Shown here piece by piece: positions 9,457-17,355 of a stretch of 32,000 bases of DNA. How positions within the stretch are numbered: the stretch's first letter is position 1; each line of letters opens with the position of its first letter. The notes beneath the pieces were generated by a model. It was not told the origin of the DNA and ran no database searches. It saw only the letters and a list, made by a program, of their open reading frames with translations. Both the position numbers and the translations under genes were made by a program. The stretch is from Geobacter metallireducens GS-15 (GTDB lineage: Bacteria; Desulfobacterota; Desulfuromonadia; Geobacterales; Geobacteraceae): the NCBI RefSeq assembly GCF_000012925.1, contig NC_007517.1, positions 900,001 to 932,000 of the forward strand, written 5' to 3'.

Positions 9457-9780
9457 TTATTGCAGATAGCGTTCCGATGACATCACCTTGGAGATGAGGA
9501 GTAACTGCCTGAGGTGGGGCGAACTGTTGCCCCTGCGGATAACCTCCCGAACCGACAGCAGATCATTGATCAGGGTTTTTCCCTTTCTGACAAGTCGACG
9601 CGCCCTGTGGTTCCGCCGGGCGTAGGGAGCAAGGAGATCCAAGGCCTCGGCGATTTTCAGGCCGGCGATGACCTGATCCTTGAAGCTCTTGAACTGTCCC
9701 GTTTCCAGATGGTTGCGGAGAGCTTCTATCTCGCTTTCAAAATAGCCGAGAATGCGGGTATGGAGGGTGTCGATCGCCAT
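9457..9780 (-). CDS. Hypothetical helical protein (107 aa from ATG 9780)
   Basis: Coding-like GC3 begins at ATG 9780 (MAIDTLHTRILGYFESEIEALRNH...). The track extension up to 9864 uses rare AT-ending codons (CGA AGA GTA TAT CAA CTA). No SD was found for any candidate start. Confidence 0.45.
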   Translation of the reverse strand: MAIDTLHTRILGYFESEIEALRNHLETGQFKSFKDQVIAGLKIAEALDLLAPYARRNHRARRLVRKGKTLINDLLSVREVIRRGNSSPHLRQLLLISKVMSSERYLQ

Positions 9781-9949
9781 AGTGTATACCATCGCAGGAT
9801 ATGGGCTGAAATCGCAAAACATGGAGCAAATGCGTAGTTGATATACTCTTCGGCAGTCCGTCATTTTTCTTTAGGGCATAAAAGAGGATAGCGTGTTGAT
9901 ACTGCGTCGTTTTCTCCGGTTTGCCACGGGGGGAATTCCCGGTTTTCGG

Positions 9950-9979
9950 TTGACATGACGGCTAGTTAAGGGGTATTAA
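9950..9979 (+). promoter_or_regulatory. Candidate sigma70 promoter of the cytochrome/porin cluster
   Basis: TTGACA (9950-9955), 18-nt spacer, TATTAA (9974-9979), about 80 nt upstream of ATG 10059. Confidence 0.45.
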
Positions 9980-10058
9980 TACGCGCTAATTCACAGTGTT
10001 TGGTATGCTGAAAAGGTGCAAGAGGGGTTCTTGATCTCTCGGAAAGGGACTGTATCCG

Positions 10059-10976
10059 ATGAAACAGGGAGTGAACAGGTTCGGTAGATTGCTGGTAAGT
10101 GTGGCGTTGTTGGGGTGGGCCACGGCCAGTGCCGGTTTCGCATTTGCCGCCGAGCAGACCTCCGGCGCGACTGAGATGGGAAAACGGTCGTCGTCGCCGG
10201 TGGCAACGGTCCAGATCCAGAAGCAGCCCGAGCTTTACGCCGTCGAGCCCCCTCCACTCACCGTTACCCAGTGCGGCCAATGCCACCCCGGCGTGTTTCA
10301 GGACATCAAGAAGGACGGCGGGCGCCACGCCTTCACCTGTCAGAACTGCCACAAGAGCTTCCACAGCTATAGTCCCCGGAAGAACAACTGGGACCAGATC
10401 ATGCCCAAATGTTCCGATTGCCACTCGCCGGCAACGGTGGCCCATGCGCAGGTCTTCACCCAGTGTGCCGAGTGCCATTCAAATCCCCACTCGATAAAGG
10501 TCATGCCCATGAGCCAGAAACTTCTGGCCTCCTGTGCCACCTGCCATGCCGGACCGCCGGCGGACCTGAAGCAGTTCCCGAGCAAGCATACCAAGCTTTC
10601 CTGCGCCGACTGCCACACCCGTCACGGCCTCATACCATCTTGCAACATGTGCCACAAGCCCCACTACGAGGGGCAGGATTTCAAGACCTGCGCGAGCGAA
10701 TGCCATCCGGTTCACAAGCCGAAGGAAATTTCCTACAAGAAGGACGTTGGAACCCGTACCTGCGGAGCCTGCCACGAGGGTGTCTATGCCACCTGGACCA
10801 AGACTCCGAGCCGCCACGGCAAGGTCAGCTGCGCCCTCTGCCACACCAAGCACGGCTTCATCCCGCAGTGCACCGACTGCCACGGACTGCCCCACAGCAA
10901 GCAGCTCCACGAGCGGTTCCCGAAGTGCCTCACCTGCCACCAGGATGCGCACAACCCGCCGGTGCGCCAGCGCTGA
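10059..10976 (+). CDS. extA: Periplasmic dodecaheme c-type cytochrome (ExtA-like)
   Basis: Signal peptide MKQGVNRFGRLLVSVALLGWATASAGFAFA/AEQ has no lipobox. There are 11 CXXCH sites plus one CX3CH site (CASECH), so 12 heme sites in 305 aa. The gene symbol is assigned by analogy only. Confidence 0.9.
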   Translation: MKQGVNRFGRLLVSVALLGWATASAGFAFAAEQTSGATEMGKRSSSPVATVQIQKQPELYAVEPPPLTVTQCGQCHPGVFQDIKKDGGRHAFTCQNCHKSFHSYSPRKNNWDQIMPKCSDCHSPATVAHAQVFTQCAECHSNPHSIKVMPMSQKLLASCATCHAGPPADLKQFPSKHTKLSCADCHTRHGLIPSCNMCHKPHYEGQDFKTCASECHPVHKPKEISYKKDVGTRTCGACHEGVYATWTKTPSRHGKVSCALCHTKHGFIPQCTDCHGLPHSKQLHERFPKCLTCHQDAHNPPVRQR

Positions 10977-10986
10977 CAGCAGATGC

Positions 10987-11020
10987 CGAGATCTCCTCTC
11001 CCTTGGGGGAGGAGATCTCG
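10987..11020 (+). other. Strong intercistronic RNA hairpin between the extA-like and extB-like genes
   Basis: CGAGATCTCCTC (10987-10998) and GAGGAGATCTCG (11009-11020) form a perfect 12-bp inverted repeat. It is extendable by CCC/GGG with one bulged T. No immediate U-tract follows. Confidence 0.6.
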
Positions 11021-11063
11021 AACGATTTGCCTTTAATGTCGTGATCTTATTAAGGAGGGATGC

Positions 11064-12347
11064 GTGAAGCTTCACCAAGGCTTTACCCTGGGGGTGACGA
11101 TCCTGGCGGCGCTGCTTGCGGCGTCGGCGCCGGGTTCGGCCGCCGATCTCGGCATCACCTCCGACACCATCGTCCGCCTCTACGAACGGAACGAGAGCGG
11201 GGGGCGGCAACGGTCCCTCCTGCCGGTCTACGAGTTCCTCCGCTTCGACTATACCGTTCCCAAAACGCCGGGGCTCTCGCTCCACGCCTACGGGTGGGGG
11301 CGGGCGAACCTCCGGGACGACTTTGGCAATGCCGACGGCACTACCGACGGTGAACTCCTCTATGCCTATCTGGATTATCTGGATCCGAAGAACCGTGATT
11401 ACCAGGTTCGCCTCGGGCGCCAGTACATCTTCGAGGGGGTGATGAGGGAGAGCATCGACGGCGTCTACGTCAAGACCGACCTGGTGCCGACCGTGACCGC
11501 CTCGGCCTACGCCGGCTTCCCCGTAAATCTGCAGGATGTCAAGGGGATGGGGGGCGACTGGATCTACGGCGCCCGGGTCGCCCAGGGGATTCCCGGCCGC
11601 TACGACGTTGCCTTGGCCTACAAGCACACGGGAAATGACGGCTCTACCGATGAGCAACTCCTAGGGGCCGACGCCACCCTCCTCCTTCCCGCTAACATTA
11701 CCCTGCTCGGCCATACCACCTGGAATCTCGTCACCGGCGGCCTGGGAGAGCAGTCCTACGAGCTGAGGCTTCCCTTCAAGGCCTTCGAGCTTCGCCCCTT
11801 CTACCAGCACTACCGGTACGAGGATTTCCTCAACAGGAAATCGGGTGGTGCCACTCCCTTCCTGTACACATCCCAGTTCGGGGAGCAGGTGGACATCGCG
11901 GGGACCGAGGCCTTCTGGTACCCGGCGGAAAATATCGAGTTCGGCGCCCGCTACAAGCATTACGAGTATGGCAAGCGTTATGGTTCCGCCGACATGTACA
12001 CGGTTCTGGCCGCTGTCCGGCGCAAGATCTTTTCCGAGGCGGGGGTGGAATTCGGCCGGGTGGAGGGTGATATCGCCCAGAACCGGTACTATCTCGGGCG
12101 GGCCTATGTTTACTGGGATGTGGCGCCGGCCTTTGTCACGGCTGACGTGGTCTATGTGAACTACGACGACGGCAATGTCTGGAGCATGTACCGCAAGGAC
12201 AGCGCCTTCTTCGCCTCGGTCGGCGGGGGAAGCAAGTTCCTCGGCAAGGCCCTTACCGTGAAGCTCTCCCTCGACTACAGTCAGGACCCCTACTTCGACA
12301 AGGATTACCGTGGCACGCTGGCCGCCTCCTATGCCTTTGGCAAGTGA
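11064..12347 (+). CDS. extB: Outer-membrane beta-barrel protein (porin component, ExtB-like)
   Basis: GTG start lies 5 nt after SD AAGGAGG. Signal peptide is MKLHQGFTLGVTILAALLAASAPGSA/ADLG. The 427-aa protein has no Cys or heme motif and is rich in Y/G/D, with alternating hydrophobic short strands (e.g. YDVALAYKH, ATLLLPANITLLGHTTWN, LTVKLSLDYS) and an aromatic near the C-terminus (SYAFGK). It sits between cytochrome genes. Confidence 0.8.
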   Translation: MKLHQGFTLGVTILAALLAASAPGSAADLGITSDTIVRLYERNESGGRQRSLLPVYEFLRFDYTVPKTPGLSLHAYGWGRANLRDDFGNADGTTDGELLYAYLDYLDPKNRDYQVRLGRQYIFEGVMRESIDGVYVKTDLVPTVTASAYAGFPVNLQDVKGMGGDWIYGARVAQGIPGRYDVALAYKHTGNDGSTDEQLLGADATLLLPANITLLGHTTWNLVTGGLGEQSYELRLPFKAFELRPFYQHYRYEDFLNRKSGGATPFLYTSQFGEQVDIAGTEAFWYPAENIEFGARYKHYEYGKRYGSADMYTVLAAVRRKIFSEAGVEFGRVEGDIAQNRYYLGRAYVYWDVAPAFVTADVVYVNYDDGNVWSMYRKDSAFFASVGGGSKFLGKALTVKLSLDYSQDPYFDKDYRGTLAASYAFGK

Positions 12348-12371
12348 CGGCCATAGATGGAGCACCTACCC

Positions 12372-12842
12372 ATGAAAAAAGGAATGATTCTAACCCTCTT
12401 GGCGACAGGGCTGATACTCGCGCTCCTGGCGGCGTGCGCCTCGACCCCGGCCTATCGGCTGCCGGCCAAACACCCCAACATCTATGAGCTGGGCGACCGC
12501 CGCGAGTTCTGCACCAAGTGCCACGGCTACAAGAAGACCCCGGTGGATTTCGAACGGTACAACCATACCCCGCTTTTCACCGAGTCCCATCGCCTTGTGG
12601 CCTACCAGGACCAGCGAATCTGCGCCCTCTGCCACGAGCAGAGCTTCTGCAACGACTGTCACGTGACCCACACGGAACTGAAACCGTCGGTCAAGAACCA
12701 GACGGAGAACTACCGGCGGATGCAGCACCGGGGCGAGTACCTCTCCCGCCACCGGATCGACGGTCGTCTCGACCCCACCTCGTGCTACCGTTGCCACGGC
12801 AATCCCCAGTCGTCCCAGACGTGTCGGCCATGCCACGGTTAG
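12372..12842 (+). CDS. extC: Pentaheme c-type cytochrome lipoprotein (ExtC-like)
   Basis: Lipoprotein signal MKKGMILTLLATGLILALLAAC carries lipobox LAAC. The five CXXCH sites are CTKCH, CALCH, CNDCH, CYRCH and CRPCH. ATG 12372 is preferred over 12357 (GGAG lies 9 nt upstream). Confidence 0.88.
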   Translation: MKKGMILTLLATGLILALLAACASTPAYRLPAKHPNIYELGDRREFCTKCHGYKKTPVDFERYNHTPLFTESHRLVAYQDQRICALCHEQSFCNDCHVTHTELKPSVKNQTENYRRMQHRGEYLSRHRIDGRLDPTSCYRCHGNPQSSQTCRPCHG

Positions 12843-12847
12843 AGGGT

Positions 12848-13603
12848 ATGAGTATGCAAGCCAAGCTGAAGCTAACGGCCGGGATTTTCCTCTGTGCCAT
12901 GGTACTGGCGGGATGTGGCGGCGGGCTCAATGCGTCGAACCCGGACGCACCGTCGTCGGTCAACGCCCACGAATGCACGTGGGTCACGACGCACCCCAAG
13001 AAGATCATAGAGATGGTAACCTTTCGGGTAATTTCGTCGGCTACGCAAGCCACCTTCAACGCCACCTACGGCGAAGACGAACTGATCCAGTGCCGCGTCT
13101 GCCACGGAAGCAGCTTTCTCGGGGCCGGCGGGGGGGCTGCGGGGCCGGCGTGCCTCGACTGCCACATAGCAGACCCGGTCAGATATCCTGCTGGATGTTA
13201 TTCATGCCACGGGGGGGTTATTGTCGATTCCCGGTTTCCAGATCAAGTGTCGTCCGGTCCCTATGAGAAATTCTACGCCCGGTACTCAACGACACCGCAG
13301 TTTTCCCAGTACTCGGCGGCGCGCCAGGCTTTCATCGACCGGGTCAAGTCCGGCTCGATCCATAACCGGTTGAGCCCCACCCTTCCCCGGAATCACAATG
13401 CCCTGGGCTACGTCTTTGCCGACGCGAATCCGCAGGATACCTGTGTATATTGCCATAATCAGGAAGCGAACGCCAATATCCATCACTCAGAGGCAATCAC
13501 GAACCGCTTTTCCTGTGGCTTCTGTCATTTCAGATTTATTGGGGGCGAATTACAGTTTGTAATCATACGGGACTGCAAGGTATGTCATGTGCAGCCCATT
13601 TGA
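12848..13603 (+). CDS. extD: Hexaheme c-type cytochrome lipoprotein (ExtD-like)
   Basis: M(SM)QAKLKLTAGIFLCAMVLAGC carries lipobox LAGC. The six CXXCH sites are CRVCH, CLDCH, CYSCH, CVYCH, CGFCH and CKVCH. The start is ATG 12848 or 12854 (SD AGAGGG at 12841-12846). The track ORF start at 12518 is an out-of-gene extension overlapping extC. Confidence 0.85.
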   Translation: MSMQAKLKLTAGIFLCAMVLAGCGGGLNASNPDAPSSVNAHECTWVTTHPKKIIEMVTFRVISSATQATFNATYGEDELIQCRVCHGSSFLGAGGGAAGPACLDCHIADPVRYPAGCYSCHGGVIVDSRFPDQVSSGPYEKFYARYSTTPQFSQYSAARQAFIDRVKSGSIHNRLSPTLPRNHNALGYVFADANPQDTCVYCHNQEANANIHHSEAITNRFSCGFCHFRFIGGELQFVIIRDCKVCHVQPI

Positions 13604-13665
13604 ATGTCGAGGCATAAAATGTGCTTGTCGAAAGGTGGTAATATTCCACCGATGAGGATAGCGCC

Positions 13666-14379
13666 ATGATGGCCGAATCATCACGACCGGAAAAACAGAG
13701 CGGCTTTGAAGGATCGATCGCCGGTCTTCCGCTGACCGACGTCATCCAGCTCAAGGGCCATAACCGCTTTACCGGCGCCATTTCGGTGGAGTACCGGCAG
13801 CGGCAGGGGATGATTTTTTTCCGCGACGGCGAGATCATCCACGCGGAGCAGGAGGGCGTGGTAGGCGAGCAGGCCCTGTACGAGATCCTCCGCTGGCCCG
13901 GCGGGCGCTTTGCCGTTCAGCCGAAGGTGACCACTACGGGGCGATCCATCCAGCAGAGCATCGCGTATCTTCTCCTTGAGGCCCACCGCATTATTGATGA
14001 GGAAAATGCGGGGCTGCGGCCGAAGGGAGAGGGAGCAGGGGCTGCCCAGCGGAGGATGAGCGTTATCGCGGAACGGCTGCTCCAAATCGCCGGAGTTGGG
14101 TATGCGGTGCTTTTCAAGAAGGACGGTTTGCCGGTCGACGACGAAGGCGCCGAGGCCAAGGCCCTTGCCGAAAAAGGGAGTGAGCTGTCGCGCCTCGGCA
14201 ACAGACTTGGCGATCTGCTGGGCCTCGGCGGGGTGAAATCCGCTGCCGTTCAGGCAAAGGGGGAGCAGCAACTCCTCTTTGAGGCGAAAAATCACTACAT
14301 CTCCATTGCGGTGAATAAAGAGACTTCCCTTGCTCAGGTGGAATCGGATATCCGCGCCACCTTCGGGAGCAGGAAATAG
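13666..14379 (+). CDS. PATAN (DUF4388) domain fused to a Roadblock/LC7 (MglB-like) domain
   Basis: SD GAGGA lies 7 nt upstream of ATG 13666. The N-terminal half shows the DUF4388 pattern GSIAGLPLTDVIQLKGHNRFTGAISVEYRQRQGMIFFRDGEIIHAEQEGVVGEQALYEILRWPGGRFAV. The C-terminal half is Roadblock-like (LLQIAGVGYAVLFKKDGLPVDD...QLLFEAKNHYISIAV). Confidence 0.8.
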   Translation: MMAESSRPEKQSGFEGSIAGLPLTDVIQLKGHNRFTGAISVEYRQRQGMIFFRDGEIIHAEQEGVVGEQALYEILRWPGGRFAVQPKVTTTGRSIQQSIAYLLLEAHRIIDEENAGLRPKGEGAGAAQRRMSVIAERLLQIAGVGYAVLFKKDGLPVDDEGAEAKALAEKGSELSRLGNRLGDLLGLGGVKSAAVQAKGEQQLLFEAKNHYISIAVNKETSLAQVESDIRATFGSRK

Positions 14380-14406
14380 CGGGCTGGGACAGGGTACGAG
14401 ATTCGG

Positions 14407-15081
14407 ATGGACGAAGTTCTTCAACAACTCAATGCTGTTCCGGGAGTGATCGGAAGCCTCGTCTGCGGGCGCGATGGCGATCCCATTGCCTGTGCGTTTC
14501 CTCCCCTGTTCGACTCAGCCATTATCGAGGGGGTTACGGCCGCCGTAACAGATTCCGCACGTGGAGTCTTTGACGCAACAGGACCGGCAGAGCTCCTTGA
14601 TTTCCGCTATGGCGACGGAAGGGTTATCATTAAACCCCTGCAGGATGCCTTTGTACTGCTGCTCTGCACCAAAAAGGTCAACCTCGGGGTGCTCGCCATT
14701 TCCCTCAACGTGGCAAAGATAAAGCTGGAATCGCACCTTGTTGCACGGGGAGAGCGGCAGAAACCCGCTGCAGCTGCTCCCGATCTCTTGGAGCTTGCGG
14801 TATGCCATCTCGCTGACGGGACAAAGGGGAGTTCCTTCGAACAGTTCGGCATGGCAGCCCTTACGCCTGCCACTGCCCGGCAGGTTTCTTCCTTCTACAA
14901 GAGGGAGGCCTTCAAGAAGCTGAAGATCACCAACAGGGTGAACGGAATTTTCGATATTTTCCCTGTAATGATCGTTAACGAGAGCGATTCTTCCTACGAC
15001 GGTAAAATTATCCTCTGCAAGTCCATCGAGAAGAAGCTGGAAGCCCTCCAGGGCGATGGCCTCCTCGTCGAAATTCCGTAA
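14407..15081 (+). CDS. Roadblock/LC7 (MglB-like) domain protein with an uncharacterised roughly 100-aa C-terminal domain
   Basis: The N-terminal 110 aa, LQQLNAVPGVIGSLVCGRDGDPIACAF...ELLDFRYGDGRVIIKPLQDAFVLLLCTKKVNLG, match the Roadblock/LC7 pattern. The C-terminal part ends ...DGKIILCKSIEKKLEALQGDGLLVEIP. The gene starts 27 nt after the preceding gene. Confidence 0.8.
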   Translation: MDEVLQQLNAVPGVIGSLVCGRDGDPIACAFPPLFDSAIIEGVTAAVTDSARGVFDATGPAELLDFRYGDGRVIIKPLQDAFVLLLCTKKVNLGVLAISLNVAKIKLESHLVARGERQKPAAAAPDLLELAVCHLADGTKGSSFEQFGMAALTPATARQVSSFYKREAFKKLKITNRVNGIFDIFPVMIVNESDSSYDGKIILCKSIEKKLEALQGDGLLVEIP

Positions 15082-15282
15082 CGCGCGTCCCTGGACGGTT
15101 CTTCTCTCCCGGTTCATCCCTTCCCCGCAGCTTGTTATCCCCACCCTCTCCATCTCCGGAGTTTGCCATGGCGGGAAAATCGGGTAGAGTGTAGTCGGTG
15201 GGTCCTTCCCAAGGTCGCGACCCCTCCTGCGCCTTCCGCAGCCAAAATGTCACCAACTTCACCAACTTCCCAGAGGTCTGTC

Positions 15283-17355
15283 ATGTTTGTCCATGATTCG
15301 TCACTGTCTTTCGTTGAGGCTGAGGAGGCCGATGTCGCCGCCGTCCACCGTTCATTGGGGTCGGCCTCCGCAGCCCCTGAAGGGATATCCCCCCGCCCGT
15401 GCAATGCATATGTTTGTGCCATTCAACGCAAAGGGCTGACCCGTGTCTACGTAGTCCTTGAACACGCTGACCGGAGGGGACGCTGGGTTTTTGCCTCGCC
15501 CAAGGGTATCCCGGTGGGTGAGGCATATCTCCCGCTTCTCAAGGAAGGACTGGCCTTCGCAACGTCGCTCGGGTTCACCATGCAGGAGGTCAATCTCAGC
15601 TATGGCAAGGCGATGCGGGAAGTGGTCATCCGCGATATCCCGGTCCTTCGCCGCCCGTCCGCCACGGGACCGGCGAGCGCCGATGGGGCAAAGGATGCTC
15701 CCGGCGATGCAAAGAGAGAGGCGGCTCCGAAGGAGAACAAGGAGGAGCCCCCCCCTGCGGAAAAGCGGGAAGAGAAACCTTCGCCCAAGGACGAGAGCGA
15801 AGCAACGGCTTTGGCAGACCGCCTTGCCGCCGAAAAGGCCGCAGCGGAGCGGGAGTCGCGGGAGCGCTTTGCGGAGCTCAAGGCCCGCGTCGATAGTCTG
15901 TTTGCAGAGCGGAAGGAGCAGGACGCCGCCATGGCGGCCCAGGAAGCGGCCCTGCAGGGTGAAATTGCGCGCTTGACCGCGGAGAAGGAGGAGGCCGGCC
16001 AGGAGCACGCCCAGGCAACAGCTTCCCTCCGGAGCACGGTGGAACGTCTCAAGGGAGAGTTGGAGGCCTTGGGGAAGGGGGGATCGTCGGCTGCCGCTTC
16101 CCTGCGGGATGAGATTGCCTGGCTGAAGGCCGAGAAGGACAAGGCCGGCGAGGAAACCGCTCGGGAGGAAGAGCGGTTACGCGCGGAAGTGGATAAACTT
16201 GCCGCAGCGCGGGATAAGGGGGCAAGCGCAGCGGCCAAGCGGATTGAATCCCTCACGACGCGGCTGGCCGACCTTGCCACGGAACAGGCAACTGCCGCCA
16301 AGGGGAATGCGGCCAGGATCAAGGAGCTTGAAGCCGAGGCGGAGCGGCTGACGGCCGAGATTGCCTCTGCCGAAAAGAAGGCCGCGGCGGACATTGCCGC
16401 TTTGGAGGCGGTGATCGAGAAACGGGCGGCGGAGAAGGAGGCGGCCCGTAAGCTGGCAGTCGACCGGCTCGTTCGGCTGGCCGCCGAGGTCGAGGTTCTT
16501 GTGGCCGAGCGGGAGGCCGTCGAGCAGGTTATCTCCCGGAAGGGGGGCGGCGAGATGGCGGGAGCCCTGGCCCGGGCCGAGGCCGAAGCGGCAACCCTCA
16601 GGAGGGAAATCGAACGGCTGGCGGCGGAGAAGACCCTTGCTACGCAGGCGAGCACCGCGCGGGTTTCGACCCTTCAGGCTGAAGTCACGCGGCTTGCCTC
16701 CCAGGGAGAGCCCCCGGCTTCGGCGCGCCGTGGCCACGGGGAGCAGGTCAAGCATGAGCCCGAGAAGCCGGAGTCGGTTATTGCCGCGACAGGAGAGGCC
16801 GCAGCGGCTTCGGAGGCGTCAACGTCGGTCGATTGGGACGATGAAGTGGCCGCTGTCGTGGGAGAGGTCCTTGCGGAAGGGCAAACCGATCCCTTCAGCT
16901 TCATGGGGGAAGGGGAGGAGTTCGTTTCGTTCGGCGCCGCCGGTGGAGGAGGGGACTCCGGGGCGGGTGTGGGGTTCAGTCTCGACAAAGGGCTGGAAAC
17001 GATCGAGTACGACGGCCCGGCGGATGTTATCGAGGTCCACAACTCCCTCAACGTGGTCAACATCACCCCGGCGGGGCACACTCCCCAGCCCTGCGGCGCC
17101 TATATCGTTGCCCTCAAAAAAAGAGAGTGTTTTCGAGTCCACGTGGCCTGGAGCCTCACCGCCGACCACTCCACCCTTGTCTACTCTCCCGAGAAGCAGC
17201 CGGCGGATGCCGGCGAGTGCGCCAAGGTGGTGCGGGACGCCCTGGCCTTTGTGGAAACCGTCGGCTTCATGATGGACACGGTCCGGCTGAACCCCGATCC
17301 GGACAAGCGCGGAAGGGCTCTGGCGAAGATTCCCGTCCTCCGCCTGAAGCGGTAG
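15283..17355 (+). CDS. Large coiled-coil protein with homologous N- and C-terminal globular domains (no family recognised)
   Basis: The frame is open from 15163. ATG 15283 is preferred (AGAGG lies 6 nt upstream, and the N-terminus then aligns with the start of the C-terminal repeat copy). ATG 15247 and 15163 are alternatives. A weak promoter-like TTTGCC-17-TAGAGT (15162-15190) would exclude 15163. The Ala/Glu/Lys/Arg-rich heptad-like region spans about 15800-16705. Stop TAG is at 17353-17355. Confidence 0.75.
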   Translation: MFVHDSSLSFVEAEEADVAAVHRSLGSASAAPEGISPRPCNAYVCAIQRKGLTRVYVVLEHADRRGRWVFASPKGIPVGEAYLPLLKEGLAFATSLGFTMQEVNLSYGKAMREVVIRDIPVLRRPSATGPASADGAKDAPGDAKREAAPKENKEEPPPAEKREEKPSPKDESEATALADRLAAEKAAAERESRERFAELKARVDSLFAERKEQDAAMAAQEAALQGEIARLTAEKEEAGQEHAQATASLRSTVERLKGELEALGKGGSSAAASLRDEIAWLKAEKDKAGEETAREEERLRAEVDKLAAARDKGASAAAKRIESLTTRLADLATEQATAAKGNAARIKELEAEAERLTAEIASAEKKAAADIAALEAVIEKRAAEKEAARKLAVDRLVRLAAEVEVLVAEREAVEQVISRKGGGEMAGALARAEAEAATLRREIERLAAEKTLATQASTARVSTLQAEVTRLASQGEPPASARRGHGEQVKHEPEKPESVIAATGEAAAASEASTSVDWDDEVAAVVGEVLAEGQTDPFSFMGEGEEFVSFGAAGGGGDSGAGVGFSLDKGLETIEYDGPADVIEVHNSLNVVNITPAGHTPQPCGAYIVALKKRECFRVHVAWSLTADHSTLVYSPEKQPADAGECAKVVRDALAFVETVGFMMDTVRLNPDPDKRGRALAKIPVLRLKR

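Follow-up and report, generated by a model that had tools for sequence, protein, structure and literature searches.

Three genes of Geobacter metallireducens GS-15, Gmet_0829, Gmet_0830 and Gmet_0831 (hereafter g1, g2 and g3), follow an ExtABCD-type porin-cytochrome cluster on the same strand, and their position raises the question of whether they form a module that serves this conduit or a separate system that happens to lie beside it. We addressed this in a 32,000-nucleotide stretch of the genome (assembly GCF_000012925.1, contig NC_007517.1, positions 900,001 to 932,000 of the forward strand), here called the window and numbered from its first letter. The initial annotation, made from the letters of the window alone, had described the trio as a three-gene module without a GTPase, contiguous with the electron conduit and perhaps organising or localising it, and as the best candidate for an undescribed system. 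We find that the conserved unit is the g1-g2 cassette, that g3 is a lineage-specific neighbour, and that the linkage to ext genes is confined to one clade. The function of Gmet_0829-0831 is still uncharacterised, and on that point the initial annotation stands.

The g1-g2 pair occurs independently of g3 and of the ext genes

The g1 (13666-14379, + strand), g2 (14407-15081, +) and g3 (15283-17355, +) genes encode proteins of 237, 224 and 690 amino acids (aa), which are 100% identical to ABB31071, ABB31072 and ABB31073 of G. metallireducens GS-15. Their distribution was followed in 17 genomic loci collected via g2, in the contexts of individual homologues, in 39 metagenomic loci collected via ExtB, and in the G. 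sulfurreducens locus. The trio is intact and downstream of extD in Geobacter, Geotalea and close metagenome-assembled genomes (MAGs), including G. sulfurreducens, and only within that synteny block. The block also keeps an NAD-epimerase gene, a small divergent open reading frame (ORF) and extABC(D) on one side, and genes for a zinc alcohol dehydrogenase, an amylase and a hemerythrin. Since these unrelated flanking genes are conserved in the same loci, the adjacency of the trio to ext is ordinary synteny and uninformative.

Outside the block, the g1-g2 pair is found with neither ext genes nor g3 in two MAGs (L013, from the Geobacteraceae, and L034), a contig from a metagenome (L025), Anaeromyxobacter diazotrophicus (L024), Oryzomonas sagensis (L033) and several MAGs of the Anaeromyxobacter type, so that at least six other lineages or contigs carry the pair without ext genes. 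In all loci with g1 the second gene lies directly downstream of it, after a spacer of 9-44 nt. In L013, L025, L033 and L034 this second gene is homologous to g2 over its whole length, with the extra domain described below (and at 39-40% identity over that length in the last two), and in Anaeromyxobacter it has only the Roadblock half in common with g2. ORF picking in the high-GC Anaeromyxobacter-type loci is unreliable, and those contexts rest on tblastn and gene calls. A hidden Markov model (HMM) of the g3 end domain found nothing in the distant g1-g2 pair loci, and a g3-type protein also occurs alone, without the pair (e.g. in L031).

The ext clusters, in turn, mostly lack the trio. It is present in two of the 39 metagenomic ExtB loci, both Geobacter-like, and absent from the other 37, about 17 of which have at least 4 kb of downstream sequence. 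At 35-60% ExtB identity, tblastn and the family HMMs detected no g1, g2 or g3 in the available flanks, and no co-occurrence of trio and ext was seen beyond the shared synteny. Because the pair occurs without g3 or ext, g3-type proteins occur alone, and ext clusters occur without the trio, we conclude that g1-g2 is the conserved functional unit, a cassette found across two phyla-level lineages. The three-gene module of the initial annotation is thus a feature of the Geobacter/Geotalea synteny block: as to whether the trio travels together and with ext-like clusters, only g1 and g2 stay together outside it, and the ext link holds in one clade.

The gene that follows the cassette varies. In the clades of L013 and L025, a P-loop nucleoside triphosphatase (NTPase) occupies the third position, where Geobacter has the coiled-coil protein; in both loci it is a CbbX/EccA/SpoVK-type AAA+ ATPase of about 290 aa encoded directly after g1-g2 (L013:10142-10999 and L025:10837-11727). 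In Anaeromyxobacter, the gene after the cassette encodes a dCache_3/HAMP-like membrane protein that has no kinase domain (L024:10665-11867). In two Geobacterales MAGs, a g2-like gene without g1 is followed by a gene for a HAMP membrane protein, likewise lacking a kinase domain (e.g. L020:10684-11574).

g1 and g2 carry divergent Roadblock domains

In g1, residues 15-113 (nt 13708-14004) match the PATAN/DUF4388 family (PF14332) with an E value of 7e-23 and 81.4 bits against a Pfam cut-off of 25, and its orthologues likewise score above threshold. The PATAN domain is fused to a divergent Roadblock/LC7 domain at residues ~136-233 (nt 14071-14364). Here the Pfam match (Robl_LC7, PF03259, residues 136-211) reaches 19.2 bits, under the 23-bit cut-off; the g1 orthologue in L013 is above threshold with 25.5 bits, and the g1 family profile matches solved Roadblock proteins in the PDB at E 0.04-0.1. 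On these profiles, g1 is predicted to belong to the Roadblock/LC7 superfamily. It has no Response_reg match, and with a Roadblock-like C-terminal half it falls outside the PatA-type proteins, which combine PATAN with REC.

Neither Gmet_0829 nor its G. sulfurreducens orthologue GSU2641 is new to the literature: both are annotated as PATAN-domain putative GTPase-activating proteins (GAPs), and both are catalogued as orphan MglB homologues (Wuichet & Sogaard-Andersen 2014), against which the claim of an undescribed system does not hold up. GSU2641 has also been listed among the genes down-regulated in a csrA mutant biofilm. A large set of PATAN-Roadblock proteins of about 233 aa (P0149-P0242), 50-54% identical to g1, is present in Geobacteraceae, Desulfuromonadaceae and Oryzomonas; these may be paralogues such as Gmet_0980 or Gmet_1175, and the one we looked at (Oryzomonas) has a g2-like gene downstream.

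In the AlphaFold model of g2, a disordered linker joins the Roadblock domain (residues 1-116, nt 14407-14754) to a second folded domain of about 95 aa (residues 128-222, nt 14788-15072). Its Robl_LC7 score of 19.8 bits is sub-threshold in Pfam. The alignment-based AlphaFold model (predicted local distance difference test, pLDDT, 81) shows the canonical alpha-beta-beta-alpha-beta-beta-beta topology of Roadblock in residues 1-116, which Foldseek matches to Asgard Roadblock, LAMTOR2/3 and MglB structures with E values of 8e-8 to 1e-5 and template modelling (TM) scores of 0.7-0.79. The best matches include 7yh1, 6ehr, 5y3a and 1veu, the MglB structures 6h5b and 6hjm were also matched, and the g2 profile finds 7yh1 at E 1.9e-4. 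The modelled fold and the profile together place g2 among the predicted Roadblock proteins. The domain assignments made initially, PATAN plus Roadblock for g1 and Roadblock plus an extra domain for g2, were upheld by these profile and fold searches.

We gave no family to the C-terminal domain of g2. A relationship to GD-box beta-barrels (CDC48 N-domain, AbrB/MazE, TOBE) was considered and dropped, the hints being all sub-threshold: its profile reached E 0.08-1.8 against GD-box barrels, the CDC48 N-domain and SpoVT in the PDB, individual members gave CDC48_N, MazE, AbrB and TOBE in Pfam at E 0.05-0.2, none significant, and hhalign against the human p97 N-domain returned a probability of 9.5%. 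The fold search with the whole g2 model is dominated by the Roadblock half.

g3 belongs to an unnamed family of twin-end-domain coiled-coil proteins

The g3 protein has an N-terminal end domain (residues 1-125, nt 15283-15657), a Pro/Glu/Lys linker, a coiled coil (residues ~176-490, nt 15808-16752), an acidic/Gly linker and a C-terminal end domain (residues 576-690, nt 17008-17352). The two end domains are 34% identical to each other (E 1e-17), and the centre is rich in Ala, Glu, Arg, Lys and Leu with a hydrophobic periodicity of 3.5-3.6 residues, which agrees with the coiled-coil protein of about 690 aa with duplicated ends that was initially described. No Pfam or NCBIfam family was found for g3. 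An exhaustive HMMER search with the end domain collected 288 clusters at E ≤ 1e-3, with lengths of 430-1160 aa, nearly all of which bear the domain (~120 aa) at both ends with a long helical region between; an alignment shows this architecture too. Therefore g3 belongs to a coherent, unnamed family without a Pfam or NCBIfam entry. Two members, P0243 and P0245, have four end-domain stretches and not two, which suggests tandem or internally duplicated architectures.

The C-terminal end domain was modelled with a pLDDT of about 97 as a beta-rich fold with two helices. It has no significant fold match by Foldseek among 350,542 PDB chains; the best, the PARP2 WGR domain (E 0.086, TM score 0.31), was treated as no match.

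The g3 start at ATG 15283 is the choice of gene callers, supported by a conserved GAGG ribosome-binding site and an MFVxD N-terminus in all homologues. Alternative versions are RefSeq WP_238378973 (613 aa), which would cut into the N-terminal end domain, and the longest ORF, from TTG 15163 (730 aa).

The three products lack the export signals of the adjacent conduit

The Ext cluster (Gmet_0825-0828, 10059-13603, +), which lies outside the unit and is described here for context, encodes a periplasmic multiheme cytochrome, an outer-membrane barrel and two lipoprotein cytochromes. It is the ExtABCD-type cluster studied by deletion in mBio 2024. Its products have cytochrome Pfam matches, CXXCH motifs (11 in ExtA, 5 in ExtC and 6 in ExtD, the porin ExtB being the sole Ext protein without one) and leaders, as signal or lipobox N-termini. 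In a scan of the three proteins, g1-g3 showed no CXXCH motif, no signal peptide or lipobox N-terminus and no transmembrane segment. The products of g1-g3 are thus predicted to be cytoplasmic, whereas the conduit is periplasmic and outer-membrane, and without an exported redox or porin product they do not qualify as members of an Ext/Pcc conduit operon. Since they differ from the Ext proteins in having neither export signals nor transmembrane segments nor heme motifs, a direct structural role on the outer-membrane conduit is unlikely.

Conserved promoter-like elements precede g1 and g3

The stop codon of the extD-like gene (13601-13603) is followed by 62 nt and then by g1. This spacer contains a 5-bp hairpin (GGTGG-TAATATT-CCACC, 13634-13650, +) that has no U-tract, is not conserved, has a fold z-score of -0.73 and is absent from the terminator-scan output. 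The ORFs, the spacer and the terminator scan confirm the layout first reported, of three same-strand ORFs behind the extD-like gene with a 62-nt gap and a hairpin lacking a U-tract. A structured RNA or terminator in the three spacers of the locus was rejected, as fold z-scores there are -0.7 to +1.0 and the scan gave no terminator-like sites.

The same spacer carries a putative sigma-54-type -24/-12 element, GGCATAAAATGTGCTT (13611-13626, +), some 57 nt ahead of the ATG of g1, with its GG at 13611-12 and its GC at 13623-24. The pattern GGCA-N8-GC occurs at -49 to -59 before g1 in 10 of 11 syntenic loci; in L036, for which an offset g1 start was used, it lies at -76. Across the synteny block, the remainder of the extD-g1 spacer is only about 36% identical, which makes the element an island of conservation. 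The window has no other match to the motif; the element has the exact sigma-54 -24/-12 spacing and resembles the RpoN consensus of G. sulfurreducens (TTGGCACGGTTTTTGCT). A search with a strict sigma-54 consensus (TGGCAC-N5-TTGC, up to two mismatches) yielded nothing relevant, and fewer matches than chance; the element was recognised only via the multi-species spacer alignment.

In the 201-nt spacer between g2 and g3, a consensus scan and conservation point to a putative sigma-70-like element, TTGCCA-N16-TAGAGT (15163-15190, +). The pattern TTGCC-N17-TA(G/A)AGT is kept in all 10 of 10 syntenic loci, in spacers that have otherwise diverged. Separate promoters for g1 and g3 are likely on the basis of these two elements, which were recognised by their conservation. 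In G. sulfurreducens (L029:15393), TTGCC-N17-TAGAGT ends about 7 nt before the g3 ATG, compared with 60-140 nt upstream in other species, a position that would imply a near-leaderless g3 mRNA in that species.

Published expression data bear on the same question. From the location of the primers, the Gmet0825-0828 deletion removes 10058-13601 of the window and keeps 13602 onward, including the sigma-54-type element, as well as the ext upstream region. In the deletion mutant, Gmet_0829 and Gmet_0830 are still expressed, and are reported as up-regulated (log2 fold change of 2.8 and 2.1), which shows that their expression needs no ext genes in cis. Wild-type RNA levels are similar for Gmet_0826 and Gmet_0827 (27.6 and 23.9) and Gmet_0829 (21.9). 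By eye, we noted a TTGACA-N18-TATTAA sequence at 9950-9979 (+), about 80 nt upstream of extA, which falls in the region that the deletion retained. The consensus scan did not report it, because its -10 hexamer does not end in T.

No GTPase is encoded near the cassette

None of g1, g2 and g3 has a Walker A motif, and a search for MglA-like ORFs came back empty both for the window and for the sequence within 10 kb of the cassette in about 30 related loci, in line with the earlier observation that no P-loop or GTPase protein lies in or beside the module. The probe was a Myxococcus xanthus MglA sequence, which gave no matches at E ≤ 10 in the first set of loci and at E ≤ 1 in the ExtB loci; the result rests also on the lack of Walker A motifs and on the lack of GTPase Pfam families among the called neighbours. 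No MglA gene thus lies within four genes, the distance by which Wuichet & Sogaard-Andersen define a coupled MglA-MglB system.

Elsewhere in the genome, the published catalogue lists three MglA-family GTPases, the coupled MglA Gmet_3417 and the orphans Gmet_3475 (225 aa) and Gmet_1982 (289 aa) (Wuichet & Sogaard-Andersen 2014). The initial annotation had left a choice between a GTPase encoded elsewhere and none at all; these three genes make the former plausible, and the latter is weighed below as a rival. In the same census 328 of 749 MglB homologues were uncoupled and uncharacterised, so that a Roadblock protein without a GTPase is both frequent and already on record. Genes for PATAN proteins are found repeatedly near those for MglA and MglB, an observation that others attribute to Makarova et al. 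2006.

A proposed role and its alternatives

We propose that the locus contains two separable cytoplasmic units, a g1-g2 regulator and a g3 scaffold, placed downstream of the Ext genes in Geobacter by happenstance, an account that we think stands an even chance of being correct. The divergent Roadblock domains of g1 and g2 would pair as a heterodimer, as Roadblock proteins generally pair (MglB dimers, LAMTOR2/3), and the resulting platform would bind and regulate an NTPase encoded elsewhere, the likeliest partners being the orphan MglA-family proteins Gmet_3475 and Gmet_1982. The one indirect hint of such pairing is the strict adjacency of the two genes, 9-44 nt apart in all loci with g1. PATAN would be the output or targeting domain that docks the complex on the membrane or on a polar machine; the candidate here is the type IV pilus motor (PilB/PilC), the sole target documented for PATAN. 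As the Geobacter-lineage member of an uncharacterised long coiled-coil family, g3 would most plausibly act as a tether or scaffold.

Several points weigh against this proposal. Our results establish what domains the proteins contain, that the units are separable, where they occur, the conservation of the promoter-like elements and the lack of export signals, whereas the pairing of g1 with g2, the NTPase on which they act, the target of PATAN and the scaffolding by g3 are steps that we infer. The g2 Roadblock domain is only 10-13% identical to MglB in structural alignments, that of g1 is likewise very divergent, and the two are very divergent from each other (hhalign probability 4.5%); given this divergence, a GAP-type function should not be assumed. 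The lack of MglA within 10 kb in about 30 loci is as compatible with a role independent of GTPases as with action in trans, and the P-loop protein adjacent to the cassette in two distant relatives is an AAA+ ATPase, not a GTPase. As to transcription, GSU2641 and the element ahead of g1 do not appear in the published RpoN regulon and promoter lists, and the sigma-54-type element does not extend beyond the Geobacter synteny block, with no counterpart upstream of the distant cassettes. Co-transcription with ext is possible because there is no terminator after extD, and the rise of g1 and g2 RNA in the deletion mutant could equally be read-through from the retained ext promoter as the activity of a promoter of their own.

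The arrangement initially suggested would make the trio a single module in the service of the neighbouring Ext conduit, for example to position or organise it in the envelope, and co-transcribed with extABCD. In its favour, the genes share a strand across a gap of 62 nt that has no terminator, they stay adjacent in every Geobacter and Geotalea locus examined, including G. sulfurreducens, and the RNA of Gmet_0829 is close to that of Gmet_0826/0827 in the wild type and rises when the deletion brings the ext promoter closer. However, unrelated flanking genes are conserved in the same loci, at least six other lineages or contigs have the pair but no ext genes, and the trio never accompanies Ext clusters at or below 60% ExtB identity. 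Promoter-like elements are conserved ahead of g1 and g3, and cytoplasmic products are set against a periplasmic and outer-membrane conduit. We regard a dedicated module as very unlikely; the presence of the trio in 2 of 39 ExtB loci, together with the promoter-like elements and the lack of export signals, largely undoes the proposed link to the conduit. A relay function, in which the cassette would pass on the input of a membrane sensor, like the Roadblock protein of a Streptomyces conservon, and would have no part in cell polarity, ranks as the least probable explanation. The dCache_3/HAMP-like protein after the Anaeromyxobacter cassette, the HAMP protein after the g2-like gene of the two Geobacterales MAGs and the down-regulation of GSU2641 in the csrA mutant biofilm are consistent with it, but the neighbours vary by lineage, no sensor gene stands beside the cassette in Geobacter, and a conservon-type kinase, DUF742 protein or GTPase partner is not present.

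The main rival to our proposal is a Roadblock platform that works independently of a GTPase, with the g1-g2 heterodimer regulating or adapting another NTPase (a CbbX/EccA-type AAA+ ATPase or a PilB-type secretion ATPase) or serving as a pure adaptor. No locus has an MglA gene near the cassette, the next gene encodes an AAA+ ATPase in two distant relatives, PATAN domains bind the PilB1 ATPase directly, and g2's C-terminal domain weakly matches the CDC48 N-domain and other GD-box barrels; the Roadblock superfamily was, moreover, first proposed as one of general NTPase regulators (Koonin & Aravind 2000, as quoted). Yet the AAA+ neighbour is limited to one small clade, the resemblance to CDC48_N falls short of significance (E 0.06-1.7), the genome has two unpartnered MglA paralogues, and every experimentally characterised bacterial Roadblock regulator (MglB, MglC, CvnB) acts in a small-GTPase circuit. 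We consider GTPase-independent action rather unlikely. An extension of it, in which PATAN of a GTPase-independent g1-g2 heterodimer controls a PilB-type or AAA+ ATPase and, with g3 as a tether, sets where a type IV pilus-like secretion machine acts and hence where cytochrome nanowires or conduits are deployed, is a long shot; if true, it would give the locus a real though indirect link to extracellular electron transfer.

Relation to known systems

A close parallel to our proposal is the MglA polarity module of Myxococcus xanthus and Thermus. Roadblock proteins such as MglB and LAMTOR2/3 act as small-GTPase-binding dimers. Like MglB and MglC, g1 and g2 would have the Roadblock fold (g2 matches 6h5b and 6hjm), g1 is classed in the MglB family by Wuichet & Sogaard-Andersen, and the host, an organism of the deltaproteobacterium type, also has an MglA-MglB pair and MglA paralogues; MglB with MglC is the bacterial precedent for two different Roadblock proteins that cooperate. 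In contrast to them, the cassette has no adjacent MglA, g1 bears PATAN at its N terminus and g2 an extra, different domain at its C terminus, the identity is about 10-13%, and a GAP role is putative. A divergent-Roadblock heterodimer that serves as a GTPase platform has its precedent in LAMTOR2/LAMTOR3 (p14/MP1) of Ragulator, which with Asgard Roadblock dimers is among the best structure matches of g2 (7yh1, 6ehr, 5y3a, 1veu). The LAMTOR and Asgard dimers, however, come from eukaryotes or archaea and lack PATAN, and the GTPases with which they partner (Rag) are known.

The function of PATAN has been defined experimentally only in cyanobacteria, where in Synechocystis the domain by itself binds the N-terminal region of PilB1 and the N-terminal domain of PilC, is membrane-localised and is enough to switch the polarity of the pili; HmpF, a coiled-coil protein, takes part in the same pathways. 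In M. xanthus, PATAN proteins show phylogenetic co-occurrence with SgmX, a regulator of pili. The locus resembles the PatA-type regulators (PixG, PixE, LsiR) in having PATAN/DUF4388, their PilB1/PilC-binding output domain, and a long coiled-coil protein, as HmpF is in that pathway. It differs from them in that g1 has Roadblock in place of REC and no chemotaxis-like genes are nearby. Between g3 and HmpF there is no detectable homology, and the twin-end-domain architecture of g3 is its own.

As in the Streptomyces conservon (CvnA kinase, CvnB Roadblock, CvnC, CvnD GTPase), a Roadblock protein is encoded in a small conserved cassette, and some distant relatives adjoin sensor-type membrane proteins. 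Only the Roadblock component is present here, with no kinase, DUF742 protein or GTPase, and we therefore do not count the cassette as a conservon. The g3 protein can be compared with the Myxococcus scaffolds FrzS, AglZ, SgmX and SopA, which work with MglA on type IV pili: it is predicted to be cytoplasmic, with folded terminal regions parted by a long non-globular segment, and SopA likewise has two conserved folded ends without a Foldseek match. No sequence or fold relation of g3 to these proteins was detected, and its ends, unlike theirs, are mutually homologous with a coiled coil of about 315 residues between them.

With 328 of 749 in the 2014 census, orphan MglB-type Roadblock proteins form a large group that, MglC aside, is essentially unstudied. 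Our analysis defines one specific and widely conserved two-gene form, a PATAN-Roadblock protein with a Roadblock protein that has an extra domain, which could provide the orphan MglA/SofG-like GTPases of Geobacterales and Myxococcota, or their pilus-type ATPases, with a missing regulator. Pilus-type machinery and extracellular electron transfer are linked in Geobacter, and a regulator of polarity or positioning would for that reason be of practical interest, though such a role is hypothetical here. The end domain of g3, an unannotated family of about 290 sequence clusters with a confidently predicted fold and no solved relative, is a reasonable target for structure determination. The published phenotypes of the ext and Gmet0825-0828 deletions need no re-reading as polar effects on a dedicated accessory module, with read-through into g1-g2 as a caveat.

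Other features of the locus

The PADLOC models of defence systems gave no match for g1 and g2 and a coiled-coil-type match for g3 at E 0.005 only, and a role of the trio in anti-phage defence was dropped for lack of support. Within the Ext cluster, the extD-like gene Gmet_0828 (12854-13603), the fourth of the conduit, is its fast-replaced component: it is 75% identical in the closest relative, G. hydrogenophilus, and 28-36% identical in most other synteny-block loci, where ExtA-C are 65-98% identical. Otero et al. 2018 noted that the outer lipoprotein cytochrome undergoes non-orthologous replacement, with which this divergence agrees. The small divergent ORF (9457-9864, -), situated between the genes for the NAD-epimerase and ExtA, has 135 aa as the longest ORF and 107-121 aa in gene calls; it belongs to no Pfam or NCBIfam family and is kept in all syntenic loci.

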